In this document: positions 13,184 through 59,263 of the stretch, in pieces
Position numbering within the stretch: position 1 is the stretch's first letter
Layout of the letters: each line of letters begins with the position of its first letter
NCBI GenBank assembly: GCA_965249275.1
Contig: CBDFLQ010000007.1
Span: forward strand, 192,001-256,000
Direction: 5' to 3'
Origin: Dehalococcoidia bacterium
GTDB lineage: Bacteria > Chloroflexota > Dehalococcoidia > Plut-88900
DNA: 64,000 bases
Made by a program: the position numbers and the translations under genes
The notes under the pieces: generated by a model
Databases searched by the model: none
Told to the model about the DNA's origin: nothing
Seen by the model: only the letters and a program-made list of their open reading frames with translations

Positions 13184-13245
13184 CGAATAAATGTTCTGTA
13201 ATGATAAGGCATACAGGGGCACGTGGCAAGGGGTTCGTGTCACAT
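13184..13245 (-). promoter_or_regulatory. Sigma70-like promoter (TTGCCA-17-TATCAT) with downstream LexA-like box and upstream GTGACACGAACCCC motif
   Basis: Minus strand reads ATGTGACACGAACCCC TTGCCA N17 TATCAT tac AGAACATTTATTCG. Confidence 0.6.
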
Positions 13246-13303
13246 GGGGGAGGGGGGTGTTAGACTAGCGCGCCCGAACTTTCAAGCAGGCGGTGTCCTA
13301 TTG

Positions 13304-14929
13304 ATGTTCAATCGTCTTCGTCGTATCCGAAAACCGATGTTTCTGGCCGTAGGTGTCGCCGTGGTCATGCTGGCGTCGCTGGGGGTGATTGCGGGGTGTG
13401 AGGGAGGAGGGGAGGACGAGGTGGCAACCCCTGTTGTAGAGCTGACACCGGTGGCGGTGTCGAGCCCCGGGGCTACGGAAGCTGCATCTACTGAAACGGC
13501 GACGCCTGCGATCTCGAAACCCGATCCCACTGTGTCGGCGGAGACGGGTGAGAGTGGGATGGTGGACCTGCTGCACCGGCTGAGCCAGGACCGGCTGAGC
13601 AACCCCGGAAATCTAACTGCTCAAACCGCCCTTCGGGAGATCGCGGATTCGGGGGACACGGCGCTTGTTGCTGCGCTGACGGACCTTATCCAGGTGCTGT
13701 TGACCCGTAATGAACTGCTCTTCAACGCGGAGCAGGTAATTCCCGTCATGCAACAGCTCTCGGGGCAGAGTTTCGAATATGACGGCAAGGCGTGGGTCGA
13801 ATGGCTGGCTCAACAACCCGACTTAGAGCTGCCAGAGGGATATTTCCAGTGGAAGGTGGACTTGCTGAGCGATATCGATCCCCCGTTCAGGAGCTACTTC
13901 ACCTCGGGTGACGGCGAACTGATAAACCCTGCGACGATAGATCTGGACCTGAGGTTTTTGGTATGGGGCGGGGTGTTACAGGACGATGGGTCGTCGAGAT
14001 CGATTCCTTCGCTGGTGAACCCGGCGATGGTCGAGGGGGATGAGGCGGCCTACCTGGAAAGCACCGACCGCGTCTTCGGGGTGTCCATAAACGGAGATGC
14101 AAGGGCCTATCCGTTGCGGATCATGAACTGGCACGAGATGGCGAACGACGTGGTGGGTGGGGTCCCGGTGGCGCTTGCCTACTGCACTCTCTGCGGTTCC
14201 GGCATTTTGTACGATACCGACGTGGACGGGCACACATACACATTCAGAAGCTCGGGGTTGCTGTATTTCAGCAACAAGCTGATGTACGACCTGACCACCG
14301 GCGGCCTGTGGAACCAGTTCACCGGCGTGCCAGTGACGGGGTCGCTGGTCGACTCGGGAGTGCGGCTGAATATACGGCCGGTGACTCTGACCACGTGGGG
14401 CGACTGGTTAGCCATGCATCCCGATACGCTGGCACTAGACATAAATACGGGATACCCGCGCAACTACTCGTCGGAAGGGGAGTTCGGGGCGGCGTACACG
14501 GACTACTTTGGGAGTGAGGAACTGTGGTTCCCTGTCGGTGAGTACGACGAACGGCTGCAAGTGAAGGACGTTGTGTACGGAATTGAAATAGACGGAAATG
14601 GTAAGGCTTATCCGGTGGAGGTTGTGGGTAGTGAAGGATTGGTGAACGATGAGATCGGCGGGACTGAACTAGTGCTTGTGGGGAATCCGGGGACAAATGC
14701 CGTAGTTGCATACGAGCGCGCGGGAGTGAGGTTCGTCAGCCTTCTTGGCGAGGAGGGAAGAACGACGCTGGTGGATGAGAACGGAGTAGAGTGGCTGGTG
14801 GGGGACGCAAGCCTGGAAGCGTTGGATGGCAGCGGCGACGAGCTGGCGCGGATTGCGGGCCGGACCAGTTTCTGGTTCGGGTGGCGGGCGTTCTTCCCGG
14901 AGACGGAGTTGTATGGGGGTGGGGGGTAG
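13304..14929 (+). CDS. DUF3179 domain-containing lipoprotein
   Basis: Lipobox-like IAGC; ARAYPLRIMNWHEMAND, YCTLCGSG, SGLLYFSNKLMYD, FWFGWRAFFP. Confidence 0.85.
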   Translation: MFNRLRRIRKPMFLAVGVAVVMLASLGVIAGCEGGGEDEVATPVVELTPVAVSSPGATEAASTETATPAISKPDPTVSAETGESGMVDLLHRLSQDRLSNPGNLTAQTALREIADSGDTALVAALTDLIQVLLTRNELLFNAEQVIPVMQQLSGQSFEYDGKAWVEWLAQQPDLELPEGYFQWKVDLLSDIDPPFRSYFTSGDGELINPATIDLDLRFLVWGGVLQDDGSSRSIPSLVNPAMVEGDEAAYLESTDRVFGVSINGDARAYPLRIMNWHEMANDVVGGVPVALAYCTLCGSGILYDTDVDGHTYTFRSSGLLYFSNKLMYDLTTGGLWNQFTGVPVTGSLVDSGVRLNIRPVTLTTWGDWLAMHPDTLALDINTGYPRNYSSEGEFGAAYTDYFGSEELWFPVGEYDERLQVKDVVYGIEIDGNGKAYPVEVVGSEGLVNDEIGGTELVLVGNPGTNAVVAYERAGVRFVSLLGEEGRTTLVDENGVEWLVGDASLEALDGSGDELARIAGRTSFWFGWRAFFPETELYGGGG

Positions 14930-14946
14930 CTCACCGGTAGTGAATT

Positions 14947-15309
14947 CTACGTACAGCTAGACGGGGTATTCAAGGAATTGTTATTACTGTCGTTTTTACT
15001 GGCGGCAATTAATTCATCGTAGTCTCTTCGCGCCTTTTCGTAGCGAGCCTCTGCTTGGTGTAATTCTGCTATGGTAAAATCCTTACCCTTTTCAATCTCT
15101 TGCCGATAGTTGTCACCGTGTTTACTCTTCATCTTGTGATGGTGCAAATGGCTCGATCGCGCAGCCTCGGCTTTCCTCCAATCGGAGAGCGCGTTGTGGG
15201 CGTTATTCTCGCAACCACTTAATCGACGAACAGCCTCATCGAGGCGGCGTCTCGCTTCATTGATATCCATACTCTTATCTATACGGCTTTCACAAGCGTA
15301 GATATTCAC
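14947..15309 (-). CDS. Hypothetical coiled-coil protein, AT-rich
   Basis: 120-aa ORF with visibly lower GC than its neighbours; start uncertain. Confidence 0.5.
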   Translation of the reverse strand: MNIYACESRIDKSMDINEARRRLDEAVRRLSGCENNAHNALSDWRKAEAARSSHLHHHKMKSKHGDNYRQEIEKGKDFTIAELHQAEARYEKARRDYDELIAASKNDSNNNSLNTPSSCT

Positions 15310-15350
15310 ATCTTCGAAATGGGACTATAGATTATGGGCAGGTTGGGTTT

Positions 15351-16295
15351 TCAGCGGTAGTGGACGTAGCCGCCGAGGCGGGATTCGACGGATTCGGCGA
15401 TTTCTTCTGCGAAGGAGGAGCCGACTCGGGAGAAGAGTTTTTGGAAGAGGGGTCGGCGGGGGCGAGCGTAGACGACCTTGGGGGGAACCTCGCCGAGCTC
15501 AGATGCGAGCTCGATGGCTCGGTCCATGTCGGCGACTTCGTCGATAAGGCGGTACTCGGCGGCCCTTCTGCCGGTGAAGACCTCGCCGGTGGCGTATTTG
15601 AGGACGTTGTCCCGGGACATGCCTCGGGACCTGGCGACAAGGTCGACGAAATTGTCGAAGAACTGGCCGATCAGCTCGTCCCGCTTCTTCAGCTCTTCAT
15701 TGGTCGGGTCGCGGTAAAGGGCGCCCATGTCCTTATAAGGCCCGCTCTTGGAGACGGTGACGTCGATCCCGATGCGCTTGAGCAGGTCTTTTGCCACCGG
15801 GCCGATGGAGATCACGCCAATGGAGCCGATGATGGAGCTGGGAAGTGCGATGATCTTGGTGGCCCCGCAGGCGACCATATACGACCCGGAAGCGCCAACG
15901 CCCCTGACAAAGGCGATTACGGGTTTCCTGGCAGCCAGGCGAGACACGGCTCCGTAGAGGTACTCGGAGGCAGGGGCAGAGCCGCCGGGGGAATCGATCT
16001 CGATGATGACGGCGCGGACACGCTTGTCGGTCTTGAGGGTATCAATAAGGCGAACGGACTCGCCGACCTTGGCGCCGCCCTGAATCGCGCCGAAAAGCTC
16101 GACGATGGCGATGCGGGGCTGTATAGGCAGCGCGAGGCCCCAGATCGAAGGGCGCGACTCCACGGTGGCGGAAGCGGCCTCGGCGTTGGGGACGTAGGCG
16201 GTTGCAGCCGAGGCAGCGCGTCGGACGACCTCATATCCTATTCCGGCGGCGGTAAGGCCGAGCGGAAGCAGGTACGAATCTTTTGGAAACTTCAT
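15351..16295 (-). CDS. sppA: Signal peptide peptidase SppA (S49)
   Basis: IDSPGGS, ASGSY, IIGSIGV, KSGPYKD, TGEVFTG. Confidence 0.9.
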   Translation of the reverse strand: MKFPKDSYLLPLGLTAAGIGYEVVRRAASAATAYVPNAEAASATVESRPSIWGLALPIQPRIAIVELFGAIQGGAKVGESVRLIDTLKTDKRVRAVIIEIDSPGGSAPASEYLYGAVSRLAARKPVIAFVRGVGASGSYMVACGATKIIALPSSIIGSIGVISIGPVAKDLLKRIGIDVTVSKSGPYKDMGALYRDPTNEELKKRDELIGQFFDNFVDLVARSRGMSRDNVLKYATGEVFTGRRAAEYRLIDEVADMDRAIELASELGEVPPKVVYARPRRPLFQKLFSRVGSSFAEEIAESVESRLGGYVHYR

Positions 16296-16765
16296 TGGTC
16301 CTCCCGATGGGTGACGTTAGATTTTAGAAATTGTCTGAGCAATATATGAAGGGCGGTGGGGTTGTCGCGACGTAAGGAAAGGAGTCGAAGGAGATAGACA
16401 AAGGCGGCAAATCCAATCACCCCACCCCCAACACCGAAGCCGAGGACATCGTAAAGGCATCCGTCCCAGAATCGGACACCCGTGCCCTCTGGGCAGAGAA
16501 GGGTATCGGCGATGAAGACTCCGAGCACACCAAAGGCAAAGATAAAAAACAATGCCGCCATAAATCGTTCTACGCTCCAGGCTCTCAGATGGGCCCCTAA
16601 CCTGGAGGAGAGCGCCTTGAGCAGTCTGTGCCGGTAGACGGGGCGTGGGACGACAGCACGCTGCGGCGGAGCAAAGAGTGCTTCTCTCCGGTTTGGAGGC
16701 GCGTCGTCGGCGATTTCAGCTGGGGTAGTGTCTCCGTTGGGGTTGTTTTCTGGCAAACCGATCAT
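16292..16765 (-). CDS. Hypothetical membrane protein
   Basis: Two TM segments; stop overlaps the sppA start. Confidence 0.55.
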   Translation of the reverse strand: MIGLPENNPNGDTTPAEIADDAPPNRREALFAPPQRAVVPRPVYRHRLLKALSSRLGAHLRAWSVERFMAALFFIFAFGVLGVFIADTLLCPEGTGVRFWDGCLYDVLGFGVGGGVIGFAAFVYLLRLLSLRRDNPTALHILLRQFLKSNVTHREDQ

Positions 16766-16775
16766 CTTCCTGAGG

Positions 16776-18257
16776 TCAGTGGGCAGGTGTCATGGGTCCG
16801 GGGCCACCCTCCTCCCGCCTTGGCGGACTTTCAGCTAATTCTACATCAGCAGGGACGCGTTTCATAAAGAAAGCCGGGACCAAGGCGAGCAGTGACACGA
16901 CAAATGCTACGAGGAAGAAGCCTTCGAAGACGGAAAGGCCGGCCTCCGAGACACGGGAGACGTAGTCTGGGTCGGTGAAGGGGAGGTCGATGTCACGGAC
17001 GAGAATGTCGAATCGGTCGGTACCCCAGGCGGCGATAGCTGCAAGGCCGACGGTCATTCCCATGAGGCGCATAACGGTAAGAAGACCAGAGGCCGACCCT
17101 CGATGGGCAGAGGGGGAGGAGTCGACTGCGGCGGCGGCAATTGGTGCGATGACGAGGCCGAACCCGAACCCGCCGATTACGAGGTGTATGGTCAGCGCGG
17201 GGTCGGTGAGGGAGGTGTCCCAGCCCATCATCAAGAAGAAGGAGACGGCAGCCAGGGCAAGGCCAAGGGCTGTCGGGAGCCGGTAACCTAGTTTCGATAC
17301 CGCAAGGCCACCGAGTATTCCGCCGACGGGGATCGCAGCGGTGAACCGCACCAGCCTGAGGCCGCCCTCCAGGGGTTCTTTGCCCATTACCGTGTCGGTG
17401 ATGAGGGGAACGTTGACCATGGCGATTATAAGGCCGATCCCGACCAGGAAGTGGGTGAGGTTCGCACCGGAGAACGTGGCACGGCGAAACAGGGCCGGAG
17501 GGATGAGGGGATAAGGAATCCGACTTTCTCGCCAGATGAAACCGGCGGCGAGGACGACGGAAAGGACGATGCCGGCGGCGGCGAGGGGTGGGTAGTCGGG
17601 CCAACGGGATATGGACAGGGTAAACAGGACCAGGCTGAGCATGATCCATATGCCGCCCAGGTAGTCTACGGGGGTCTTCCGGCCCGTTCCTCCGGGCACC
17701 AGGAGGAGCAGGAGCAGGATGGAAGCGGCTACGAGGGGGACGTTAATCCAGAAGACCCATCGCCAGTCGAGGAAGTGGTCGAGGAGCGCGCCCCACATCG
17801 GCCCGATGACGCCGCCGAACTCCGCGGAGGCGCCGAGTAGGCCGAGGGCGGGGGCTCGGCGTCCAGGGGGGAACAGGTGGCCGATCATGGCGATAGTGAC
17901 GGGAATGACCGCACCTCCTCCGACAGCCTGGATAACCCGGTAGGCGACGAGGGGCCAGAGGTTATTGGCGATGGCGCAGAGCACGGAACCGACGGCGAAC
18001 AGGAGCATAGCTGAGACGTAGACGGTGCGGTGGCCGTAGACGTCGGAGAGCTTGCCGATGAGGGGCATGCCGCAGGTGTAGCCAAGCAGGTAACCGGTGA
18101 TGATCCAGGAGACCTGGCTAAGGTCGTCGACACCCAGACGGAAGTCACCCATGATGCTGGGTAGGATGGTGACGACGACTACCTGGTCGTCGGCGGCAAT
18201 GAATACGCCGAAGCAGGCGGCGAGGATGGGGATGTAGGGTGAGCGGGTGCGGATCAT
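16776..18257 (-). CDS. MFS DHA2 (14-TM) exporter, Rv1410c/P55-like
   Basis: WIITGYLLGY...PLIGKLSDVYG, WRWVFWINVP. Confidence 0.85.
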   Translation of the reverse strand: MIRTRSPYIPILAACFGVFIAADDQVVVVTILPSIMGDFRLGVDDLSQVSWIITGYLLGYTCGMPLIGKLSDVYGHRTVYVSAMLLFAVGSVLCAIANNLWPLVAYRVIQAVGGGAVIPVTIAMIGHLFPPGRRAPALGLLGASAEFGGVIGPMWGALLDHFLDWRWVFWINVPLVAASILLLLLLVPGGTGRKTPVDYLGGIWIMLSLVLFTLSISRWPDYPPLAAAGIVLSVVLAAGFIWRESRIPYPLIPPALFRRATFSGANLTHFLVGIGLIIAMVNVPLITDTVMGKEPLEGGLRLVRFTAAIPVGGILGGLAVSKLGYRLPTALGLALAAVSFFLMMGWDTSLTDPALTIHLVIGGFGFGLVIAPIAAAAVDSSPSAHRGSASGLLTVMRLMGMTVGLAAIAAWGTDRFDILVRDIDLPFTDPDYVSRVSEAGLSVFEGFFLVAFVVSLLALVPAFFMKRVPADVELAESPPRREEGGPGPMTPAH

Positions 18258-18298
18258 GGGGTTTTGGGGGTGTGTGGGTGTTGGTGTAGTCTTTGGAT

Positions 18299-18339
18299 CA
18301 CCCTCACCCTAGCCCTCTCCCATCAAAGGGAGAGGGGAC
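18299..18339. repeat. REP-like hairpin, family CACCCTCACCCTAGCCCTCTCCC..GGGAGAGGGG
   Basis: Copies at about 25332, 27121, 28456, 29884, 55981. Confidence 0.8.
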
Positions 18340-18373
18340 TGGACCCTCCCTCACCTCCTCCGGCAATGAGTGG

Positions 18374-19129
18374 TTAAGAATTAGAACTGATATCAGGTGG
18401 GGCGATTTCGGCGGGGATATCGAAGTCTGAGGGGAGGATGGTCCTGGTGATGTTTGGATCCTCGTCGGAGGACATGGGGCCGAACATGTGGATTTTGTAG
18501 ACCAGGGAGTCGTCTATCCCGACCCAGATACCGACATCTATGGGGAGGCCGGGCTCAGCGGTGGGGGCGATGGAGGTGAGCTGGCCGGAGTCGATGACCG
18601 AGGTGATGTGGTAGGTGGAGATACCTTCGAGAGAGGCCTCACCCTCCAGAACGGGGTCCTTGGCGTCTCGGATGATGCCGCTGATTCCGGTTGCGGGGTC
18701 GAGCAGGGCTGAACTGACGATTCCCCTCTCTATCAGCTCGAATTCATCGGTGAATGGGTTGGTGAGCCAGGTTTCCTCACCTATGGCGATAAGGGAGACG
18801 TCGAAGAAGAATCCACCAGCCCAGGCGCCGACCTCGGCCTCGAGGCGGTCAGGTGCTACGACCTGGCCTGTGACGTCTTCCATCAGAAGGCCAAAGGCGA
18901 TGGGTGTACCGCCGTTTTCGTGGGTCATGGTGAAGGTGAAGAATTGGAGCGCTTGGAAGCGGTCGGCGGCGGCCTGGAGGATGACGGATGGGTCGGGGGG
19001 TGGGGTGGGGGAGGGGGGGGTGGTGGCGACCTCCTGCCCACCCATGCCGCATGCTGCGGCAACAAGAACGCAAGTTAGAGCGGCTATGGCGATGACCGAG
19101 AGAGCGGGATGGAGTGTTGTTTTGCGCAT
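18374..19129 (-). CDS. LppX/LprAFG-family lipoprotein
   Basis: Lipobox AAAC, Pro-rich linker, LLDPATGI..II and C-terminal SDFDIPAEIAPP typical of the family. Confidence 0.75.
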   Translation of the reverse strand: MRKTTLHPALSVIAIAALTCVLVAAACGMGGQEVATTPPSPTPPPDPSVILQAAADRFQALQFFTFTMTHENGGTPIAFGLLMEDVTGQVVAPDRLEAEVGAWAGGFFFDVSLIAIGEETWLTNPFTDEFELIERGIVSSALLDPATGISGIIRDAKDPVLEGEASLEGISTYHITSVIDSGQLTSIAPTAEPGLPIDVGIWVGIDDSLVYKIHMFGPMSSDEDPNITRTILPSDFDIPAEIAPPDISSNS

Positions 19130-19272
19130 TTTAGAAGTGCCTCTGAGTCATCATGTTAGCACTCTTGGTTTGGGGGCCACAATTAGGTAGGGAGCGGGGA
19201 GTCGGGGCTGCTATGTTAGAATGACCCGCCTCCCCTGTGCGCATTTTGCACCCCTTCGAACAGGAGCGTTCT

Positions 19273-19911
19273 ATGGACGAAGCCACCATCCAAGCGTTGA
19301 TACCCATTGCAATCGCGGCTTACGTGATTGGCTCGATTCCGACAGCAGTCATAGTGGTAAAACGGTTCACGGGGCGGGATGTGATGTCCCTGGGTACGGG
19401 GAACGTCGGGACGATGAACACGCTGAGGGCAACGAACTCGAAGAAGTTGACGCTGGTGGTGCTGCTGGGCGACATGGGCAAGGGGGCGCTGGCGCTGCTG
19501 CTGGGGTGGGGGGTGGCGGTGGGGTTCGGCTATGAACCGGAGCTGGCGATGACTGTGGGAGGGATCACGGCGATAGTCGGGCACAACTACTCGATCTTCC
19601 TGAAGCTGAAGGGTGGCAAAGGGTTAGCGACGGCGGCCCCGGTCCTTCTGTTCATAGAGCCGGCGTTGGCGGGAGTGTGGATTCCGACGTTCCTGGTAAC
19701 CGTCGCGTTGACGAGGCTGATGGTCGCGGGTCAAATATTGGGGACGGTGGCGGCGGCGTTGGTCGGGGTATTCGTCTTCCCGGACACGGCGATACCGGTG
19801 GGGATCTTGTCGGCGATCATCTTCATAAAACACGCGCCGAGAATCAAGAACATCATCGATGGGACGGAGCCCCGGATGTACTACAAGATAAAGAAGTCGG
19901 GGGAGGGTTGA
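19273..19911 (+). CDS. plsY: Glycerol-3-phosphate acyltransferase PlsY
   Basis: AYVIGSIP, GTGNVGTMN, DMGKG, GHNYS, KGGKGLAT, KH..I..I..GTE. Confidence 0.88.
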   Translation: MDEATIQALIPIAIAAYVIGSIPTAVIVVKRFTGRDVMSLGTGNVGTMNTLRATNSKKLTLVVLLGDMGKGALALLLGWGVAVGFGYEPELAMTVGGITAIVGHNYSIFLKLKGGKGLATAAPVLLFIEPALAGVWIPTFLVTVALTRLMVAGQILGTVAAALVGVFVFPDTAIPVGILSAIIFIKHAPRIKNIIDGTEPRMYYKIKKSGEG

Positions 19912-20652
19912 GGGGGGTGTCGAATTTGCGAAAGCGTTGACATAAGCCCTGTGTGCAACATAATGGCCCTTAATCTACCGCGTTTTTGCTCTTTCGGGGG
20001 TTGGTCATCTGGCGGAAGGCTAGTCTCCGGGGTCCGTTAAGAAGTTGAAATCGTGGCTAAAGATGAGGATGATTGGGTAGTTGGACATGGTTGACATCGG
20101 GAAGGTGTATGGGAATTCAGGGGGCTAGGTTGACAACAGTTATATGTGTCCTTATGTCTAGCGATTAGTGCTTTAAGTGTATATGGGAGACATAACAGAT
20201 ATAGTGCGAAGTGCTATAGGGGTGTGTTAGTGGTGGGGGGAGGGGGGGTTTAAGAAGTGGGGGAAAGGGGTTGTGTGGGTGGTGGGCTGATGCCTTAGAT
20301 CCCTCGCGGGGCCTCGGGATGACACGACTAAGGGGGCTGGGCAGTCACTGGGTGTCTAGGGGTCAGGGACAGCGGGAGCTATCAGGGAATGCCCCTGCTC
20401 TTGAGACCCTTTGACGGAGCTCAGGGCGAGCGGAACCCCCGCCCCTTCTGTTCTTGTGGTTTGGCGGACCCTGGATTCCCGATTACTCGGGAATTTCGGT
20501 TATTTGGAGGTGACGCCTCGGTGCACGGGCAAAGTACAACCTCCCCCCGCTCATACTTCGAGAGCCTCAGCACGAGCGGCCCCCCGGGATGGATTCCCGA
20601 TCGGGGTCGGGAATGACGGATATGGAGAGGGGGGAGGGGATAGGTACAGGTC

Positions 20653-21633: not shown

Positions 21634-21687
21634 TTCGATTGCAGGCTCACTCTCCTCAGCGATTCTTCGATTCTAGCCCTTTCCCAC

Positions 21688-22010
21688 CCCCCCGCTCATA
21701 CTTCGACTAAGCTCAGCACGAGCGGCCCCACGCCACCTTGCGCGTACTTCGATCCTGTTTGTTCCATCCAGATCGCCTACCTCCCCCGCTCATACTTCGA
21801 CTAAGCTCAGCACGAGCGGCCTCACGCCACCCTGCGCGTACTTCGATCCTGTTGTTCCATCCAGATCGCCTACCTCCCCCCGCTCATACTTCGACTAAGC
21901 TCAGCACGAGCGGCCTCACGCCACCCTGCGCGTACTTCGATCCTGTTGTTCCATCCAGATCGCCTACCTCCCCCCGCTCATACTTCGACTAAGCTCAGCA
22001 CGAGCGGCCC
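21688..22010. repeat. Tandem REP array (BIME-like), 94-bp period, 4 REP copies
   Basis: GCTCATACTTCGACTAAGCTCAGCACGAGCGG starts at 21694, 21788, 21882, 21976; intervening sequences nearly identical. Confidence 0.92.
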
Positions 22011-22041
22011 CTCCAACACCGGTAATGCCACAGGTCTCTTG

Positions 22042-43820: not shown

Positions 43821-43864
43821 GTGACACGAACCCCTTGACTGTATGCGTACATGTGTACTATTAT
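43821..43864 (+). promoter_or_regulatory. Promoter of structured element copy 1 (TTGACT-18-TATTAT, GTAC-N4-GTAC box)
   Basis: Same spacing conserved in copies 2 and 3. Confidence 0.6.
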
Positions 43865-44495
43865 CCCCCTCGACTAGCTCGTCACACACCTAAACCCAAG
43901 GAGGAACCAAAAACCCAGGGGAAGCCCACCCGATCCACCCGAGGACTCAACGCCTCAGCCCATCCCAACGGCCCATACACGGGGCCCGCGGCTCAAGCGA
44001 AAGTCGCCATCTCCTCATCCCACGGGTCCCGTGCACCCTTCCCTGATCCCCAGGCGATGGAAGGTCCACAGACTATGCTCGGCAGGCCCCGTCCAACGAC
44101 GCACCTGCCGATTCAACGCTCCACATCATCGGATGCGTTTGTCCCGGCCCATTGCGCGCCGGTTTCCCGGGTAGGTCAACCGACCCCCGGTTTAGCAAGG
44201 CCCTCGTGCCTTGTTTGTCCCGCCGTCCCTGCCATCCGTCTACCCGGCGGATGCACCGGGACGCCGGTTATGAAAGTCCGCCTCAGGCGGCATCTTCCCC
44301 GTCAGCGGTCCGGTCAAGTGCCGCTGCCGGTGGGATCGGCCCCACACAACCCTGACCACAGCCGACAACGTGTGGGGATAATCCAGACCGGCGCCGACGG
44401 CTCGGCAGCAACCTCCGGCCTGGTTTCTAGTTACCGGGCCTTCCATCGCAGACCCTCCCAAACAAAACCGAAACCAACACCCCAAAACCCAATCG
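43821..44495 (+). ncRNA. Putative large structured ncRNA, copy 1 (coordinates include promoter)
   Basis: Homologous to 55112-55766 and 58573-59263; long-range helix 44054-44067/44436-44449; no conserved reading frame. Confidence 0.65.
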
Positions 44496-44673
44496 AATTT
44501 GCTGCAAGTGGAACACCCGCCTATGGAGGGCAGAACGTCCGCCTGGGGAGGTCCGCCTCAGGAGGACTAAAGAAAAACCCGGTGTGTCACTAATCTATCG
44601 AACGAGTACACCATATTGACCCCACTCCCCCCACCCCTTACCATTCCCACGCCGACCCACCAGGAGCACACCC

Positions 44674-49320: not shown

Positions 49321-49786
49321 CATTTCCGCGCAATTCTCCCCACTCCCACAACTCCCTTCTCCTTCGACGGTTCTTTGTGGATCCGTATTGCACCCTTTCC
49401 TGCGTCATTCCGGGCCCCGAGCCGGAATCCATCATCTCCCACCCTCTCTGTCCCTCCACTGTACGGGCATCCACGAGGGTTGCTCTAGGGGCGGGGGAAT
49501 CCGTTCACCCTAGGCCTAAGTCGAAGGACAAGTGGATTCCTGGCGCGCTTCAGTCCCCTCTCCCTCAGTGGGTCGCAGATGCTGCAAGTGCGTCTTTGGC
49601 GCACGCCGAGGCGTGAGAGGGCTGGGGTGACTCCCTTCTACCTCTCCAGCTACAAAACACCCTCTATTGCAACCCATACCCCATGTTGCTATCCCCTACC
49701 CATTGCCACCTGTATCCTGCTATGCAATCCCCCGCCCCTTGCCACCCGACTTCCTACGTGCTACCTTCCCGCCGTAAGGAGGTCCC

Positions 49787-50119: not shown

Positions 50120-50236
50120 ATACCTATCATTGGAGCAATCCAACTCCCGCCCTCATTTACTGGCCTTTGGCCTTAATGTAGAATTCATCATGCTTAAACT
50201 CATGATTAGACTGTTGAATAACGCTCCGCCGAGACC

Positions 50237-51256: not shown

Positions 51257-51260
51257 TGGG

Positions 51261-52007
51261 ATGCCCAACTCCTCGCTCCATATCTCCTTCGCCGACGACG
51301 CTGCCAGGGCCCTCGGCCACCCCCTCCTGACCGACTACTCAGGCAGCTACCTTCTCGGCTCCACGGCCCCCGACGTCCGGAACCTCGCCGGCTGGGACCG
51401 ATACCGCACCCACTTCTTCGACCTTGCCAACGACCAGCCCGGCAAAGGCATTCAGGGCCTCTTCGATACCTATCCTGAGCTCTCTGACGCCGCAAAACTC
51501 GGCAACGAGACCCGTGCCTTCGTCCTCGGCTATATGTGCCACCTGGTCACCGACGAGCACTGGATCGCCGGCGTCTACCGCCCCTATTTCGGCAAAAAGA
51601 CTTCCGCCGACCCGCTCACCAACGTCCTCGACCGAGTCCTCCAGTTCGAATTGGACAAGCGTGAGCGCAATGGCATCCGGGACCTTGATGGCGTACTGGA
51701 GGCCCTTAAGGACGCCGACACCGGTGTCAACGTCTCCTTCATTGACGCCGACCTCCTGCGCCGCTGGAGGGACGTGATGACGGAGCGCACCTCCATGGAT
51801 CTCGGCTGGGACCACCTGAGGCGATTTGTACGAAAGGCCCTCCCCCAGCATCTGAAAGATGACGAGGGTACTATGACCTCCGTCATTGCCCAGGGCCCCG
51901 AGCTTCTCTCCCGAGCCAAGGAGCAGGCCCCCGACCACGTCATCGCTTCCTTCAGAGCCAAGGCCATCGACAAGTTCGTTGACATCGCAGGGGAATACCT
52001 CTCTTGA
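51261..52007 (+). CDS. Zn-dependent phospholipase C/S1-P1-like fold protein
   Basis: MP...H, LGSTAPD, THF, GY.CHL.TD..W. Confidence 0.75.
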   Translation: MPNSSLHISFADDAARALGHPLLTDYSGSYLLGSTAPDVRNLAGWDRYRTHFFDLANDQPGKGIQGLFDTYPELSDAAKLGNETRAFVLGYMCHLVTDEHWIAGVYRPYFGKKTSADPLTNVLDRVLQFELDKRERNGIRDLDGVLEALKDADTGVNVSFIDADLLRRWRDVMTERTSMDLGWDHLRRFVRKALPQHLKDDEGTMTSVIAQGPELLSRAKEQAPDHVIASFRAKAIDKFVDIAGEYLS

Positions 52008-53350
52008 GAGTCATCACCGACCTAACCGAGGCCCGTGACTTCCTCAGTCGGCTCCACGGCGGCCCCGACGCCCCTTTGAGTCCCAAAGTCGCCGCCGGCA
52101 TTGAACGCGTATTCGGCGAACCTCTATCTCTTCCCGAAGCCGTCACCGGCATCCTCGATGACGTCCGTACCAAAGGTGACGCCGCTCTCTTCGACTACCT
52201 CCGCCGCATCGACAACATTTCCCCCGACCACCTGGAAGTCCCCCAAAGCGCCCTTGATGCCACCCTGGATAAAATCCCCCCCAATGTCGCCGACTCCCTG
52301 AGATTTGCCGCCTGCCGCATCCAGGATTACCAGACCGAGTTAGCCCGGCACACCATCCGGGATTTCACAAGCAACGGCCTCGGCCAGAGAGTCACCGCCC
52401 TGGACAGGGTCGGCCTCTACGTTCCCGGCGGCACCGCCGTTTATCCTTCCACCGTGCTAATGACTGCCATTCCCGCCCGAGTCGCGGGCGTCCGGGAGAT
52501 CATTCTGGTAACTCCCCCCCGCCCCAATGGCTCAATCGCGCCCGTCGTCCTTGCGGCCGCGGCAATCGCCCGAGTCGATAGAGTCTTCGCCATCGGCGGC
52601 GCACAGGCCATAGCCGCCCTCGCTTACGGCACCGAGTCCATCCCCGCCGTCGACAAGATTTTTGGCCCCGGCAACGTCTTCGTACAGACCGCCAAGCGCA
52701 TGGTTTTCGGCACCGTAGGCGTCGACACCATCCAGGGCCCCACCGAGGCCGTCACCGTCGCCGATGACCACATTTCACCCTCCTGGTGCGCCGCCGACAT
52801 CCTCGCCCAGGCCGAGCACGACCCAGATTCCGTATCCATTCTCATTACCGATTCCCCGTCCCTCGCCGAGCGGGTCGAATCGGAGCTCACCGACCTACGT
52901 CAGCGTTCCCAGCGTCTCGATATCCTCACCCAGTCCATGGACGCCAATGGCGCTATTATCGTCACCGAATCCATTGAGCAGGCCATTGATCTATCCAACC
53001 TCTACGCCCCGGAACACCTCTGCCTCATGGTCCGCAACGCCGACCGCTATGTTGACCTAGTTAAGAACGCCGGGGCCCTGTTCCTGGGAGACCACTCTCC
53101 CCACGTTCTCGGGGACTACGTCGCAGGCCCGAGCCACGCCCTCCCCACGGCAGGCGCCGCCCGTTACAGCTCTGCCCTCGGCGTTAATGACTTTCTGAAA
53201 TCCATGTCTATAATCTCCCTGTCGGAAGAAGAGGCGGGCCCCCTTCTGGCGCACGGCATAGCGATTGCCCGACAGGAGGGCTTCGAGTCCCACGCCCGCT
53301 CCCTGGAAGTCCGCACCGCCCAGCATTCCGTTAGCAGCGCCGGAGACTGA
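52004..53350 (+). CDS. hisD: Histidinol dehydrogenase
   Basis: GLYVPGG, GGAQAIAALAYGT, AQAEH, APEHL, GDYVAGPSH. Confidence 0.96.
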   Translation: MRVITDLTEARDFLSRLHGGPDAPLSPKVAAGIERVFGEPLSLPEAVTGILDDVRTKGDAALFDYLRRIDNISPDHLEVPQSALDATLDKIPPNVADSLRFAACRIQDYQTELARHTIRDFTSNGLGQRVTALDRVGLYVPGGTAVYPSTVLMTAIPARVAGVREIILVTPPRPNGSIAPVVLAAAAIARVDRVFAIGGAQAIAALAYGTESIPAVDKIFGPGNVFVQTAKRMVFGTVGVDTIQGPTEAVTVADDHISPSWCAADILAQAEHDPDSVSILITDSPSLAERVESELTDLRQRSQRLDILTQSMDANGAIIVTESIEQAIDLSNLYAPEHLCLMVRNADRYVDLVKNAGALFLGDHSPHVLGDYVAGPSHALPTAGAARYSSALGVNDFLKSMSIISLSEEEAGPLLAHGIAIARQEGFESHARSLEVRTAQHSVSSAGD

Positions 53351-53352
53351 AC

Positions 53353-54480
53353 ATGGATACGGAAAAGTCTCGACCCTCAATCCGAGACCTCATGCGCCCC
53401 GACCTCCGTCACCTCGCGGGCTACACCCCCGTCGTCCCTGTCGAGCGCCTGGTCGCCGAGACCGCAGCCTCATCTGGGGTGGCGCTGACCCCGGTCAAGC
53501 TGGACGCCAACGAAAACCCCTACGGCCCCTCTCCCCGCGTCCTCCAGGCCATATCTGAAAGCGAGGCCCTCCACACCTACCCCGACGCTGAGCAGCGCAC
53601 CCTCCGCGCCGCCCTCGCCGAGTACGCCGGGCTCGCCACCGAGAACATAATTGTCGGCAACGGCTCTGACGAAGTCCTCGACATGATTATCCGTCTCCTC
53701 CTGGAACCGGGTGATCGAGTGCTCAGCTGTATCCCCACATTCGGCATGTACAAGTTCCTCACCGACGTTGCCGGCGGCCAACTCATTGAGCTCCAACGCA
53801 CACCTGATTACGGGATTGACCTCGACGCCATAAAAGCCGCCACCGACGAACGTACCAAGCTCATCTTCCTCGCCTCCCCCAACAACCCCACCGGCAACAG
53901 TGTCCCGCGGGATAAGGTGATAGCCCTCCTGGAAATGGGCCTTTATGTTGTCATCGACGAGGCCTACTTCGAGTTTGCAGGCCACACCGTCGCCGACCTG
54001 GTCAAAGACTACGAAAACCTGATGGTAGTTAGGACATTCAGCAAGTGGGCGGGTCTCGCCGGCGTTCGAATCGGCTACGCCATCGTCTCCCCCGAGGTCT
54101 GTGCCTGCCTCAACCAGATCAAGCAGCCCTACAACATCAGCGTATTTGCCCAGATAGCCGCTTTGGAGTCTCTACGGGACCGGGATTACCTGATGCGCAA
54201 CGTCCAGGCCCTTGTGAAGGAAAGAGCCCGGCTCTTCGATTTCCTGCAGGGTCTCGACTACCTCTCTCCCGTCCCCTCTGAGGGCAACTACATCCTCTGC
54301 AACGTCATCCGTGGGAACGGCGAGCAGGTCTTCAACCTGCTGAAACAGCGTAATATATTCGTCCGGTATTATGATAGACCTAACTTGAAAAACTGCTTCC
54401 GAATCAGCGTCGGCAAGCCGGACGAAACCGACCGCCTCGTCGACGCCCTCGCAGAGATTGGCTTGGAATTGAATGGCTGA
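53353..54480 (+). CDS. hisC: Histidinol-phosphate aminotransferase
   Basis: [37 protein letters not shown]. Confidence 0.95.
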
Positions 54481-55072
54481 CAGACACGCCCTGCTCGAAC
54501 GAAAGACCGGTGAGACCGACATATCCATTGAGGTCGAGATCGACGGCACGGGCCAGTACACCGTCGACACCGGAGTCCCGATGCTCGACCACATGCTTTC
54601 CCAGCTAGCCCGTCACGGCGCTTTCGACCTCAATATCAGTGCCCGGTCCTCCACAGACCCCGACGGCCACCACACAGTCGAGGACGTTGCCATTCTCCTT
54701 GGAAGGGCCTTTGGCCAGGCTCTCGGGGACCGCACGGGCATCGTCAGGATGTCCCATGCCCTTGTACCCCTCGACGAGGCCCTCGCCCTTGTTGCTCTGG
54801 ACCTCGGCGGCCGAGGCTACGCCCAGGTCGACCTATCCTTCACCCAGCCCGTAGTAGGCGGCCTCACCTCCGACATGGCTCGGCACTTCCTGGAGTCCTT
54901 CGCCATCGAAGGCCGCTTCAACATCCATGCCAAAATTGAAGCTGGCACGAACGACCACCACAAAATCGAGGCCCTATTCAAAGCCCTCGCCAAATCCATG
55001 GACGCCGCCTCCCGCATAGACTCCCGCACCGCCTCCCAAGTCCCCAGCACCAAAGGCGTCATAGAAACCTAG
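54473..55072 (+). CDS. hisB: Imidazoleglycerol-phosphate dehydratase
   Basis: [31 protein letters not shown]. Confidence 0.96.
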
Positions 55073-55111
55073 AACGTCCGGGGGCCGCTTAGACCTTCTC
55101 TGGGAGGAGGG

Positions 55112-55766
55112 TATTCAGTTGTGGAGGGAAACTCGGTTTTGCTTGTTTGGATTGTTGGGAGGGGGAAGGCGATGGAAGGTCCGGGACTCGAGGGCAGGGG
55201 CGGGAGGCCAGCCTGCGATTACCCCACCTGTCTCTGCTGTGGCGGACGAGAGAGGCGGGGTGTCTCGTCCACAAGAGGGCACTCGACCATTCGGAGGGAT
55301 GGGAGTGCGACTCAACTTCCGCCGCTGGGTGGGAATCTCCGAGGGAACGACGGTGGAGTCGGAGCCTGGGGCACGAAGGCCCCTGGCCAGCCCTACATTA
55401 GCGGGCTCGTATATTCGCGTGCTATGCGCATAGCGTTGACTCAAATGCTTCGGGTGAGGGAGCGTTGAATCGGCTGGCGTTGTAAGGGTGGATGCCCTTA
55501 GAGTCTATGGACCTACCATCGCCTGATGGTCAGGGAAGGGATAGCCGGGGCCTTTAGTATGAGGAGATGGCGACTTTCGCTTGAGCCGGAGGGCGTCGCG
55601 CGGCGCACCTGCGGGATGGGCTAGGACGTTGAGTCCTCTGCTATGTGGGCCGGGGCTGGGGTTCCCCCTGGGTATTGGCGCCTCCTTTGGGATTAGGGTG
55701 AGTGATTGGCCTATCGAGGGTGAATATAGCACAAGTGTTTTGCTTGAGTCAAGGGGTTCGCGTCAC
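55112..55766 (-). ncRNA. Putative large structured ncRNA, copy 2 (coordinates include promoter)
   Basis: Reverse complement aligns block by block with copies 1 and 3; helix 55509-55522/55169-55182; TTGACT-18-TATATT promoter. Confidence 0.65.
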
Positions 55767-56006
55767 TCGCTTCAGCGAGTCTTCGACCCCATCCCCTTTC
55801 ATGCGGGAGGGGACGCCACCCCATTCCGCTCTTGAGACCCTTCGACTCGGCTCACGCCACGGCGCATCTTCGACAGGGCGAGCGGAATACCCTGCCCCCA
55901 GGAATGGAAAGGGCGTATTTCGTGAGCCGGTTCAGGGGAGGGGGGGTGCGACCACGAGAGTCGTTCCTAGGGGGGAGGGATCACCCTCACCCTAGCCCTC
56001 TCCCAT

Positions 56007-57212
56007 TGTATAGACCGGGGACATAGGTAACAGTTGTTCGGAGACATGGGTTACACCATAAGGCATGATAAATCTGATTCAGGAGGGTTTTCATGCCATG
56101 GAAGGTTGCAAGTGCCATGTCTCAACGCGAAGAGTTCGTCGCCCTGGCGCAGTCCGAGGATGTGAATATGAGCGAGCTGTGTCTGCGCAGTGGGATCAGC
56201 CGCAAGACCGGCTACAAGTGGCTGAGACGATGCCTTGAAGGCGGAGAGCAGAGTCTGGATGATCTCCCGAAGCGTCCCCGTCACTCCCCGAACCGCACGG
56301 GCGCCGAGATGGAGCAGCTCGTCGTAGACCTTCGTAGGGAGCACCCCACCAAGGGAGGACACGTACTGGCCAGGATGCTCAAGGATAGTGGTCACAACGG
56401 CGTGCCGTCCAAGAGCACGGTCACGGCCATCCTCAGGCGACATCGACTTATAGAGCCGGCCGACAGCCTCAAGCACAAGCCGTACAGGCGCTTCGAGCAC
56501 CAACGGCCCAACGACCTTTGGCAAATGGACTTCAAGGGGCATATCCCAGTAGACAGTGGTGGACGGTGTCACCCACTGACGGTACTGGACGACCATTCGA
56601 GGTTCTCCCTGGGCGTGAGGGCTTGTGCAGACGAGAAGACTCAGACCGTCCATGACCATCTCACGTCCATCTTCCGCCGCTACGGCATGCCCAACACGAT
56701 ACTGGTAGACAATGGCTCCCCCTGGGGCAGCGACTTCTACCACCCCTTCACCCCGCTCACCGTCTGGCTGGTGCACCTGGGAGTCAGGGTGGTCCATAGC
56801 AGGCCATACCATCCCCAGACTCTCGGCAAGCTTGAACGCTTCCACAGGTCCCTCAAGACGGAACTGCTCCAGGGAAGTAAATACACCGACCTGTCCCACT
56901 GCCAGAGCAGCTTTGACAGGTGGAGAGACTTCTACAACCTCCAGCGGCCTCACCACGCCCTGGACCTCGATACCCCTGCCAGCAGATACACCATCAGCCC
57001 TCGGCCTTTCCCGGAGACCCTTCCGGCCGTCGAGTACGATGCCGATGACCAGGTACGCTCCGTCGATGTCAACGGCCGAATATCCTTCCTGGGCAGATCA
57101 CTTCCCATCGGTAAAGCCTTCAGAAACAGGCGGGTCGCGCTGAGGCCCACGGCCAACGATGGCACATGGAAGGTCTTTTTCTCCGTACAGCCCATCGCTA
57201 CCATAGATCTAG
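56007..57212 (+). mobile_element. IS481-family element, right end truncated by IS5
   Basis: Left end TGTATAGACCGGGGACATAGGTAACA; no matching right end found beyond the IS5. Confidence 0.82.
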
Positions 57213-57223
57213 GAAACCTCTGA
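56093..57223 (+). CDS. IS481-family DDE transposase
   Basis: MPWK, GISRKTGYKW, WQMDFKG, LDDHSR, DNGSPW, HPQTLGKLERFHRSLK. Confidence 0.92.
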   Translation: MPWKVASAMSQREEFVALAQSEDVNMSELCLRSGISRKTGYKWLRRCLEGGEQSLDDLPKRPRHSPNRTGAEMEQLVVDLRREHPTKGGHVLARMLKDSGHNGVPSKSTVTAILRRHRLIEPADSLKHKPYRRFEHQRPNDLWQMDFKGHIPVDSGGRCHPLTVLDDHSRFSLGVRACADEKTQTVHDHLTSIFRRYGMPNTILVDNGSPWGSDFYHPFTPLTVWLVHLGVRVVHSRPYHPQTLGKLERFHRSLKTELLQGSKYTDLSHCQSSFDRWRDFYNLQRPHHALDLDTPASRYTISPRPFPETLPAVEYDADDQVRSVDVNGRISFLGRSLPIGKAFRNRRVALRPTANDGTWKVFFSVQPIATIDLGNL

Positions 57224-58408
57224 ACAAGTCTAAGGGCATAGGTAATAGGTAAGATAGGGAGAGTAAGGCCAAAGCTGAGGTGAGATTTGATGGAGCAGCC
57301 GACATTTGCAGACTTGGAATACGAGGGCAAGAAGCGAAAGACCCGCCGGGAGATATTTCTGGAGCGGATGGAGGACCTGGTTCCATGGGGAAAGTTAGAG
57401 GAGCGAATCCGGCCCTACTATTCCAGGGCGGGCCGTGGACGGAGGCCCTACGAGTTGTCGGTGATGCTGCGGATACACTGCGTGCAGCTGTTCTACAACC
57501 TGAGCGATCCGGGCATGGAGGACATGCTCTACGAGGTGGAGTCGGTGAGGCGGTTCGCAGGTCTGAGGCTGTCCGGCCCCTTGCCTGACGAGACTACGAT
57601 ACTGAACTTCCGCCATCTGCTGGAAGAGCAGGAGTTGGGTCGGGGGCTGTTCGAGGAGATCAACCGTCATCTGGAGTCTCGGGGACTGAGGCTCAGGGAG
57701 GGTACGATTGTGGATGCGAGCATCATCGAGGCGCCGGCGTCTACGAAGAACCGTGCTGGAGAGCGAGACCCCGATATGCACCAAGTGAAGAAGGGGAAGG
57801 AGTGGCACTTCGGTATGAAAGTGCACATTGGTGCAGACGCTGACACGGGGGTGGTGCACAGTATGAGTACGACAGCTGCGAACGTGCATGACGTGACGGA
57901 GGCGCACCGGCTGCTGCATGGAGGGGAGAGGCGAGTGTGGGGAGATGCGGGATATCAGGGAGTGGAGAAGCGGGCGGAGAATCGGGATATGGATGTGGAG
58001 TGGCGGGTGGCGATGAGACCTGGACGGCGTCGGAAACTGAGGGCGGGGAGCTGCGAGGCCTTAGCGGAGAAGAGCAAATCATCCATCAGGGCTAAGGTGG
58101 AGCATCCGTTCCTGTACGTGAAACGGCACTTCGGCTACGCCAAGGTCCGCTACAGGGGCTTGTACAAGAACACGCAACGGGTGGCGATGCTGCTGGGGCT
58201 GGCCAACTTGGTAAGGGCCGAGCGCCACTTAGCGGTGTGACGGAGGAGCAGTGTGGTCAAATCCGGGTCGATGGTGACTGGATGCCCTGACAGGCCAGAA
58301 CATAGGATGCAAATAAGCCACCGAGACGCAACATTACGACCCAACCTCTCCCCAAAACTCCATGCAAGACAACCTAAGCTGGTTTACAGTGAGTTGTTCA
58401 GAGCTTCC
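57213..58408 (+). mobile_element. IS5-family element (1196 bp)
   Basis: TIRs GAAACCTCTGAACAAGTC / GAGTTGTTCAGAGCTTCC; CTAG on both sides. Confidence 0.9.
57290..58240 (+). CDS. IS5-family transposase
   Basis: RKTRREIFL..M, PDETTILNFRHLLE, VDASII, WHFGMK.HIG, GDAGYQG, RAKVEHPF. Confidence 0.95.
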   Translation: MEQPTFADLEYEGKKRKTRREIFLERMEDLVPWGKLEERIRPYYSRAGRGRRPYELSVMLRIHCVQLFYNLSDPGMEDMLYEVESVRRFAGLRLSGPLPDETTILNFRHLLEEQELGRGLFEEINRHLESRGLRLREGTIVDASIIEAPASTKNRAGERDPDMHQVKKGKEWHFGMKVHIGADADTGVVHSMSTTAANVHDVTEAHRLLHGGERRVWGDAGYQGVEKRAENRDMDVEWRVAMRPGRRRKLRAGSCEALAEKSKSSIRAKVEHPFLYVKRHFGYAKVRYRGLYKNTQRVAMLLGLANLVRAERHLAV

Positions 58409-58464
58409 CTAGGACTTGTCCTCTCACGCCCTTCCTAGTCTTCCTTCCCCTCCCCCCTGGTAAC

Positions 58465-58505
58465 GACATATCAGCAATGTTGCAAGGCAACATTGCTGAT
58501 ATGTC
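58465..58505. repeat. Perfect 19-bp inverted repeat
   Basis: GACATATCAGCAATGTTGC-AAG-GCAACATTGCTGATATGTC. Confidence 0.85.
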
Positions 58506-58572
58506 AATAAAACAGGGCGGGTGGGCGGGACTCAATATATCCCTGAGGGTGGTGGGGGGGCCTCTCCCAAAT

Positions 58573-59263
58573 GTGACACGAACCCCTTGACCTAATTGGA
58601 ACGTGTGTACTATTATTCCTCTCGACTAGCTCGTCACCCATTCCTAACGTAAAGGAGGAACCACAACACAGGGGGAATCCCAGCCCCGGCCCACACGAGG
58701 ACTCAACGTCCAAGCCCATCCCGCCGAGCGGCGTTAGCCGCTCCTAGGCTCAAGCGAAAGCCGCCATCTTCTCATACCATAGGCCCCGGCTTATCCTTCC
58801 CCCACCATCCACGCGATGGAAGGTCCGTAGACTATAAGCGGCAAGCCCTGTCCAAGGGCCCCTGCCGATACAACGCTCCCCTCATCAGGAGCGTATACCT
58901 CGCCCTCGCAGGCGAATACGCTGACCCCGCCAATGGCCGGGCTTAGATACAGGGCCTTTGAGCCCATAACCGACTCCCCCGCCGACGCCTTCGGAGAGGC
59001 ACGCGCACCCCTCGGCGGCTCCGAGTCCCGCTCCCATCCCTCTGCATGGTCGAGCACTTCTGGTGGTCGGGACGCCCCACACCGAGAATCCCTCGGGTCC
59101 CCTCCACATCCTCTCAGAAGCTAGGGGCTGTCCTGTGCAGGCAGTCGACGCCCACAGGCACCGGCACAGGCCTAACCGCCTCCCTGCCCAACACTCTCGG
59201 ACCTTCCATCGCCACCCTCCCCACACCAAACAAAAATCCAGAGTCCCAACTCCCAACTGAATA
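58573..59263 (+). ncRNA. Putative large structured ncRNA, copy 3 (coordinates include promoter)
   Basis: TTGACC-18-TATTAT promoter with GAAC-N4-GTAC; perfect helix 58813-58826/59199-59212; homologous to copies 1 and 2. Confidence 0.65.

Follow-up and report, generated by a model that had tools for sequence, protein, structure and literature searches.

A promoter module with a putative activator site and a putative operator in front of a multicopy structured RNA superfamily of Dehalococcoidia

In the present work, we analyze a promoter module that recurs at four places in a 64,000-nucleotide stretch of DNA from a Dehalococcoidia bacterium (assembly GCA_965249275.1, contig CBDFLQ010000007.1, positions 192,001 to 256,000; the whole stretch is called the window below). 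The module is the native promoter of a superfamily of structured RNAs of about 630-650 nt, with three members in the window and at least 34 in three further chromosomes. A cut-down form of it, in which a 17-mer runs into TTGC and the dyad otherwise found in the spacer is missing, precedes a few protein genes, including an open reading frame (ORF) of 102 amino acids in the window. The reading that we favor, at a probability of roughly 0.55, is that of a lineage-specific promoter module that combines a putative 14-bp positive site with a putative repressor operator, and that was inherited with the RNA genes, kept by selection, and reused at a few protein genes. An earlier note on this DNA had proposed that a shared promoter architecture joins the three RNA elements to the small ORF, and the connection turns out to be far beyond chance.

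The module and the RNA genes behind it

The 17-mer, GTGACRCGAACCCCTTG, occurs in four exact copies in the window, compared to 0.02 expected, and none of 100 shuffles reached four. The number of matches is still four when up to two mismatches are allowed; with three mismatches one extra site appears (7827-7843), which is located within a coding region. Either half of the 17-mer alone is found at background level, the four known sites aside. Since there are no copies with one or two mismatches and the halves are at background, the 17-mer is a discrete, all-or-nothing element in the window, and a general degenerate promoter element of the organism can be rejected on the same grounds. The coordinates that the earlier note gave for the four copies are exact, and in all four of them the final three bases are, as it had claimed, the TTG of a −35 hexamer. 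A −10 hexamer is located 17 or 18 bp past the −35 in each case, and each of the four promoters scores 10/12 in a sigma-70 scan. The hexamers are close to TTGACA and TATAAT, and the spacers of 18, 18, 18 and 17 bp fall within the 16-18 bp of sigma-70-type promoters.

Exact matches to the pattern GTGACNCGAACCCCTTG, which leaves one position free, were then collected from both strands of 185,579 reference genomes (596 Gb). The scan gave at least 103 loci; according to our own arithmetic, about 277 chance matches are predicted for 16 fixed bases on two strands of 596 Gb. Among the matches listed, 37 come from three closed chromosomes named 'Dehalococcoidia bacterium' (17 from OZ240215.1, 8 from OY760104.1 and 12 from OZ244800.1), and the remaining 66 are either lone matches in unrelated phyla or genus-level orthologous coding sites. 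These 66 are the chance expectation. The free base is A in 37 of the 37 Dehalococcoidia loci, compared to 14 of the 66 elsewhere, where it is spread over A, C, G and T. The window is related to the three scanned genomes and yet distinct from them, its RNA copies being 76-90% identical to theirs. The four promoters of the window and the 37 listed Dehalococcoidia loci, which are cited by their L numbers, make up a set of 41, and without the three promoters of the TTGC subtype (see below) there are 38 full promoters. In the alignment of the latter, the first G of the 17-mer is numbered as position 0.

At about −60 to −51, the module starts with a run of C and then a run of A; the C-run together with AAAA is present in about 30 of the 41 promoters. 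The next part is a 14-bp element, GTGACRCGAACCCC, which is invariant, occupies about −50 to −37 and is fused to a −35 of the form TTGAC(C/T). The additional upstream element that the earlier note had suspected is accordingly borne out as a part of the module. The −35 occupies positions 14-19 and the −10, TAT(A/T)(T/A)T, positions 38-43, of which T38, A39 and T43 are invariant in 38/38 promoters, which is the classic pattern of a working −10. In the 18-bp spacer, the first half drifts (positions 20-27 carry 0.15-1.0 bit, A22 excepted), and the second half is a dyad, RWAC-N4-GTRC (R26 W27 A28 C29 A30 C31 N32 T33 G34 T35 R36 C37), with the family consensus GTACA-NN-TGTAC. Its core of A28, C29, G34, T35 and C37 is invariant in all 38 promoters. 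The left half-sites are AAAC (14), GTAC (11), GAAC (8), GCAC (4) and AGAC (1), and the right ones GTAC (25), GTGC (12) and GTTC (1). The dyad lies at about −24 to −13, flush with the −10, its centre being separated by 6 bp from the −10 and by 12 bp from the −35. In L032, the only promoter with a spacer that is 1 nt shorter, it is still flush with the −10. The pattern RWACRYNYGTRC finds only the three RNA-promoter sites in 64 kb (4 matches, as one site counts on both strands, compared to 0.72 expected). The dyad and the −10 positions were not selected by the scan and are invariant next to neighbours that drift, which argues for constraint, and the conservation pattern of the dyad fits an operator.

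We now turn to the sequences downstream of these promoters, which are structured non-coding RNAs. The three elements in the window are paralogues; aligned from the 17-mer over about 690 nt, they have a mean column identity of 68%, and their 17-mers differ by 1 substitution in 51 positions. Two conserved patterns of the RNA core, both blind to the 17-mer, have exactly three copies in the window, and 3/3 of these have the 17-mer. The elements are read as RNA because their indels of 1, 2 and 4 nt are not multiples of three and no ORF is conserved, and because compensatory pairs, a long-range helix and, for RNA element 1, a fold z-score of −4.69 are found. The fold of the 5'-domain alignment (30 copies) contains 20 consensus pairs, and compensatory changes are numerous in three of these; one pair, for example, is GC in 12 sequences and AU in 10. 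In each of the three window copies, a domain of about 380 nt is closed by a helix of about 14 bp, formed by GCGAUGGAAGGUCC and GGACCUUCCAUCGC. The 5' strand of this helix can be found by pattern in 16 of the 23 full-length copies, 12 of which have a 3' strand complementary to it at no fewer than 14 of 16 positions. A protein-coding reading was rejected, as a frame of 252 amino acids is open in element 1 only and the indels are non-triplet. The long class C frames are rich in Arg, Pro and Ser and have no Pfam match.

The window has no match in Rfam 15 (the best E-value for RNA element 1 is 7.7), and the same search on 20 related loci returned only two transfer RNAs (tRNAs). A stable-RNA promoter was also considered and rejected, since no tRNA gene lies downstream of the 17-mer in the 37 loci and no Rfam RNA family is matched; the only tRNA genes near these loci are two in L057, located upstream and on the opposite strand. 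RNA element 1 has no match in phage or plasmid collections. A terminator scan found no intrinsic terminator at the predicted 3' ends of the three elements, and the single terminator-like match, about 120 nt past the end assigned to element 2, is within the chance count. The C/A-rich, G-poor tails of the RNAs, of which that of element 1 extends to about 44500, look to us like Rho-entry sites.

The window's RNA family, whose 5' leader is of two exchangeable types, with L102 as the one hybrid, stands behind 32 of the 41 promoters. A sister family, in which the closing helix and the internal blocks are the same and the 5' domain is another, and whose gap lengths are not multiples of three, stands behind five. 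The superfamily thus accounts for 37 promoters, and the other four are those of L006, L036, L066 and the small ORF. In L006 (OY760104.1), the full promoter with its dyad is followed by a leader of about 600 nt that contains tandem repeats, and then by an ORF. The TTGC subtype comprises L036 (an M24 peptidase), L066 (a hydrolase of the metallo-beta-lactamase fold) and the small ORF of the window, which come from two genomes and have in common CC[CA]TGTGACACGAACCCCTTGC and a C-rich spacer, and nothing else.

A number of side observations can be added here. In L052, L081 and L102, a decayed second 17-mer of the TTGC subtype (e.g. GTGACCTGAACCTCTTGCCCCC) lies about 28 nt upstream of the intact one. 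The RNA copies of L052 and L093 have lost most of the conserved 5' domain and run from the leader straight to the strand of the closing helix, that is, they are deletion variants that retain the promoter. Within and after the RNA copies there are several places where a mini hairpin of about 25 nt, GGAAC(A/G)TCCGCC-N4-GGCGGA, is sometimes present and sometimes missing (44511-44544 of the window, columns 149-198 of the RNA alignment, and the class C leaders of L057, L059 and L082). Its pattern has 7 matches in the window compared to 1.85 expected, and it seems to behave like a tiny insertion element. The tandem repeats in the leader of L006, four to five in number and about 75 nt each, are located 130-560 nt past the 17-mer, and the ORF behind them is acidic and has no Pfam match. 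The 5' leaders of L036 (at about 1600-1690) and L066 (on the reverse strand), both from OY760104.1, share the block AAACAATCAAAWTTYGTGCCTGAG, in which CAATCAAA is repeated; this block does not occur in the window and gave no match in Rfam. Finally, divergent from the 17-mer promoter of L036 (238-1434, minus strand) there is a gene with an M78 peptidase domain of the IrrE/ImmA type, a family that has elsewhere been tied to damage-triggered repressor cleavage. As a single case, it is given no weight.

The small ORF and the surroundings of the promoters

The protein of the small ORF has 10 homologous clusters of about 102 amino acids that are 55-88% identical to it in the alignment, with an invariant N-terminus, GGxRPGAGAPxGNRNRLRHG, so that it is a genuine conserved gene. 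It belongs to no Pfam, PHROG or NCBIfam family. The structure model consists entirely of helices and is of modest confidence (mean predicted local distance difference test score, pLDDT, of 67); compared with the PDB by Foldseek, it gives nothing at E ≤ 0.001, the best E-value being 3.7. A profile search gave 405 representatives at E ≤ 0.001, that is, a large family of uncharacterized small proteins. Family scans, which cover 56 of the 150 listed profile matches, assigned a Pfam family to none of the 56 relatives and found weak PHROG matches to the terminase small subunit in five of them, confined to a short GNxN..HG stretch. In the Atlas, the protein is matched by hypotheticals of Chloroflexota alone, apart from a lead to Phage_terminase at 0.77. 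The likeness to a terminase small subunit may be taken as a lead only. A tblastn search with the small ORF against the 103 loci listed by the genome scan returned nothing.

The rest of the window contains housekeeping genes (purine, histidine, glycolysis), two transposase genes of the IS481-like type and one of the IS5-like type. The IS481-like element at 55977-57208 is 97% identical to that of L063, and related ones are found at L049, L017, L054 and L099. These elements lie upstream of the 17-mer promoters by 12 nt (L063) to 210 nt (window), and in L017, L054, L063 and L099 their end nearly abuts the 17-mer, which suggests that the element prefers insertion beside these promoters. Of the 90 ORFs picked in the flanks of 27 related loci, 69 were scanned, and these include no SOS gene (neither lexA nor recA) and no conserved neighbour; the 21 omitted lay over or beside the promoter and RNA regions.

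Other features are located close to the promoters. A perfect inverted repeat of 19 bp, with a loop of 3 nt, is located at 58465-58505, upstream of RNA element 3 by about 70-110 nt, and AATAAAACAGGGCGGGTGGGCGGGAC follows it. Its distal arm and the G-run block are found again upstream of five related promoters (L002, L012, L032, L097 and L098). A G-quadruplex pattern (G3+ N1-7, four times) occurs within 120 nt upstream of 18 of the 41 promoters, compared to 1 of 93 background windows of the same size. The GC skew of the window is strongly positive (about +0.1 to +0.3) up to 44 kb and negative beyond, being briefly near zero over the IS-rich region at 54-58 kb. The switch at about 44000 may mark a replication terminus or origin beside RNA element 1.

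Table 1. Features of the module, the RNA elements and the small ORF in the window. SD, Shine-Dalgarno sequence.
Feature	Position	Strand	Remarks
17-mer GTGACACGAACCCCTTG, RNA element 1	43821..43837	+	exact match
Sigma-70-like promoter TTGACT-18-TATTAT, RNA element 1	43835..43864	+	10/12
Spacer dyad GTACATGTGTAC, RNA element 1	43847..43858	+	
RNA element 1, non-coding, about 630 nt	43871..44500	+	both ends inferred; fold z-score −4.69; no Rfam match
SD-like AAGGAGG, RNA element 1	43898-43904	+	
Long-range helix strands, RNA element 1	44054-44067 and 44436-44449	+	
17-mer GTGACGCGAACCCCTTG, RNA element 2	55750..55766	−	exact match to pattern; sole copy among 41 with G at the R position
Sigma-70-like promoter TTGACT-18-TATATT, RNA element 2	55723..55752	−	10/12; TG before the −10
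Spacer dyad AAACACTTGTGC, RNA element 2	55729..55740	−	
RNA element 2	55105..55716	−	approximate ends; alignment and RNA-core patterns
Helix strands, RNA element 2	55509-55522 and 55169-55182	−	
17-mer GTGACACGAACCCCTTG, RNA element 3	58573..58589	+	exact match
Sigma-70-like promoter TTGACC-18-TATTAT, RNA element 3	58587..58616	+	10/12
Spacer dyad GAACGTGTGTAC, RNA element 3	58599..58610	+	
RNA element 3	58623..59264	+	approximate ends; alignment and RNA-core patterns
Helix strands, RNA element 3	58813-58826 and 59199-59212	+	tail end 59252-59264
17-mer GTGACACGAACCCCTTG, small ORF	13227..13243	−	exact match; TTGC subtype common to L036 and L066
Sigma-70-like promoter TTGCCA-17-TATCAT, small ORF	13201..13229	−	10/12; spacer without conserved dyad
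AGAACATTTATTCG, downstream of the small-ORF −10	13184..13197	−	one mismatch to GAAC-N4-GTTC
Small ORF, 102 amino acids	12854..13162	−	SD AAGGAGG in front; 10 homologous clusters

Activation, repression and the alternatives

According to the favored reading, the 14-bp element would be the recognition site of a class II activator, or a promoter-specific contact of the sigma or alpha subunit of the polymerase, and would give these promoters a common positive input. The element is taken as a positive site because it is the sole part that is kept at the three protein-gene promoters, where the −35 is weaker. Its position, −50 to −37 and flush with the TTG, is that of a class II activator site, and no dyad or repeat symmetry can be seen in it. 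An UP element, i.e. A/T-rich sequence at −40 to −60, was considered and discarded: 9 of the 14 bases are G or C, and the only A/T-rich part is the 4-base A-run at about −54 to −51. The dyad would in turn be the operator, at which a dimeric repressor blocks the RNA polymerase, and this repressor would act only at the RNA genes and L006. Each RNA copy would have inherited the module, and the fact that the module stays invariant while its background drifts is indicative of selection.

It is important to point out that several observations weigh against this scenario. The invariance of the 17-mer in the 37 loci is partly a matter of ascertainment, as only exact matches were collected and RNAs with a decayed motif escape. 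Because of this, the unbiased evidence concerning the 17-mer is limited to the 3/3 RNA copies of the window and to the free position of the scan. Since the 14-bp element is not palindromic and has no clear direct repeat, it does not look like any familiar site of a dimeric activator. Promoters outside the RNA superfamily amount to only 4 of 41, two of which (L036 and L066) have poor −10 candidates, and a regulon that extends beyond one repeat family is for this reason thin. In addition, gene conversion among the copies could add to their uniformity.

The uniformity could also be due to pure common descent, the module being the promoter part of a repeat, or a 'mobile promoter', whose protein-gene copies are reused fragments and which has no dedicated regulator. 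One RNA superfamily does hold 37 of the 41 promoters, its copies recombine (the hybrid leader of L102), and both the IS481-like element and short repeats cluster beside the promoters, as do the decayed tandem 17-mers mentioned above. The reuse of near-identical promoters before unrelated genes is, moreover, documented (PMC3575422). What descent leaves unexplained is why the 17-mer and the dyad core are invariant beside a free spacer and a free upstream region when the RNA bodies have only 68% column identity. The three protein-gene copies, from two genomes, stop at the same point, TTGC, which is not expected of random fragments. Also, no terminal repeats or target duplications were seen, and there is no match in the phage and plasmid collections. 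We consider descent unlikely as the whole explanation. Far less probable still is that the 17-mer is a site of recombination, transposition or insertion at the DNA level and that its overlap with the −35 is accidental. Several unrelated upstream blocks do join the promoters just upstream of the 17-mer, the IS-like end abuts it in the four loci given above, and RNA element 2 has the 97%-identical element 210 nt upstream of it. The elements have, on the other hand, no inverted or direct partner of the 17-mer at their other end (up to three mismatches, both strands), and the distance to the −10 is fixed, with T38, A39 and T43 invariant as in a working promoter.

A different proposal concerns the protein that acts at the dyad. 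The earlier note had reported GAAC-N4-GTTC-like palindromes at all four loci and assigned them to LexA. The four strings are found where it placed them, and three of them represent the one conserved dyad; the fourth, AGAACATTTATTCG at the small ORF, is at chance level and does not lie in the spacer. It has A in place of the G that is invariant in the other dyads, and it overlaps, by eye, an unrelated perfect 12-bp palindrome, TTATTCGAATAA. Dehalococcoides LexA is known to bind the GAAC-N4-GTTC motif too. The motif is given for LexA of Firmicutes and Actinobacteria in PMC3323433. Among the 38 promoters it is matched exactly by none, with one mismatch by 9 and with two by 28; in the window, there are 24 sites with up to one mismatch compared to 24.5 expected, and only two of the four loci reach that level. 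The cyanobacterial consensus RGTACNNNDGTWCB is likewise matched exactly by none, with one mismatch by 10 and with two by 16. With no exact match in the 38 promoters, window matches at background and a small-ORF promoter that lacks the dyad, the assignment of the dyad as a LexA box is not supported for the canonical consensus, for which the sites score at background, an outcome that the earlier note had itself named as a refutation; the genome's own LexA motif may differ.

An SOS regulon, in which LexA would make the RNAs and the small ORF inducible by DNA damage, is therefore quite improbable in our judgment. It would account for the AC-N4-GT core of the dyad, which is common to GAAC-N4-GTTC and GTAC-N4-GTAC boxes, and for the overlap with the promoter, which is like that of repressor sites. 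Six of the 38 promoters carry GTACACATGTAC, the core of the cyanobacterial consensus AGTACWNWTGTACT (PMC3091678). Against it, besides the absence of exact matches of either the Gram-positive or the cyanobacterial type and the count at background, stand the right half-sites, with GTTC in a single case, and the site at the small ORF, which is placed elsewhere relative to the −10 and breaks the invariant base. There are no SOS genes in the window or in the flanks of the 27 loci, and the invariant 14-bp element is left unexplained. The dyad does not name its protein, because the CopY/BlaI-type pattern TACANNTGTA fits it at least as well. Judged from the sequence of the dyad, LexA would thus be a candidate for it and not the favored one. 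Two further assignments were dropped by eye against the known consensus sequences: an extracytoplasmic function (ECF) sigma factor with GAAC as its −35, for which there is no conserved ECF-type −10 at the right distance, and a MerR-type regulator, as the centre of the dyad is not in the middle of the spacer.

The module of positive site and operator can tentatively be extended into a circuit of its own in some uncultured Dehalococcoidia, with dozens of copies of a hitherto undescribed structured RNA of about 650 nt, maybe domesticated or mobile, as the main output, co-induced with a small, basic, terminase-small-subunit-like protein under stress, possibly DNA damage; we regard this extension as rather doubtful. 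In either case, the 17-mer and the dyad serve to locate the genes of an unclassified large RNA of many copies in a poorly known bacterial class, and the module offers two putative protein-binding sites as bait. If it is true that one pair of regulators runs 8 to 17 or more RNA genes per genome, this would be among the larger non-coding regulons known, and it would hint at when the RNAs are needed. If the module is only inherited with the repeat, the few protein genes that carry it still provide a clear example of promoter reuse. The module also illustrates how little a short palindrome of the GAAC/GTAC type tells about its repressor, and the RNA superfamily that it marks is a more interesting object than the LexA label.

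Comparison with known systems

The dyad resembles the LexA boxes (GAAC-N4-GTTC and RGTACNNNDGTWCB / AGTACWNWTGTACT) in its length of 12 bp, in its AC-N4-GT core and in its overlap with the promoter. It differs from them in that the left half-site is mostly AAAC and the right one GTAC or GTGC, and in that no link to SOS genes was found in the window and the flanks scanned. Furthermore, LexA sites have no invariant 14-bp companion element, whereas the present module does.

The operator of CopY/CopR and BlaI/MecI is given as TACANNTGTA, refined to RNYKACANNYGTMRNY, in PMC7253601, which also cautions that this 10-mer is by itself no predictor of the protein that binds. Here, TACANNTGTA is found exactly in 7 of the 38 promoters and KACANNYGTM in 8, and the site is likewise located between the −35 and the −10. 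The 16-base RNYKACANNYGTMRNY, on the other hand, never matches with fewer than 3 mismatches (3 mismatches in 3 of the 38), and there are no copper or beta-lactam genes nearby.

Families of small RNAs with common upstream activating sites are well established, such as rsmX/Y/Z with the GacA box and Qrr with the LuxO/sigma-54 sites. As in these, each of several paralogous non-coding RNA genes of one genome has the conserved element directly in front of its core promoter, which would provide the genes with a common input. The RNAs here are, however, about 650 nt long compared to about 100 nt, they occur in 8 to 17 or more copies per genome, and their element abuts the −35 and is not palindromic.

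The putative mobile promoters, as described in PMC3575422, have in common with the module that a near-identical promoter stands before non-homologous sequences, with transposable elements close by. In the present case, the full module precedes the RNA superfamily and L006, and the 17-mer precedes three unrelated protein genes. The difference is that the protein-gene copies share the 17-mer only, and that most copies belong to one RNA family.

The large non-coding RNA classes in Rfam include OLE, GOLLD, ROOL, HEARO and raiA. With these, the present RNA has in common that it is several hundred nucleotides long and structured, with covarying helices; unlike them, it matches nothing in Rfam 15, is multicopy, and has an invariant promoter of its own and exchangeable 5' domains. 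Full-text literature searching gave no paper on such an RNA or motif, which is weak evidence of absence, since sequence is not searchable in this way. Promoters that combine an upstream site with an operator are of a known kind; as far as the searches show, what is new relative to Rfam and the literature is this particular module, with its exactness, its copy number and its cargo.

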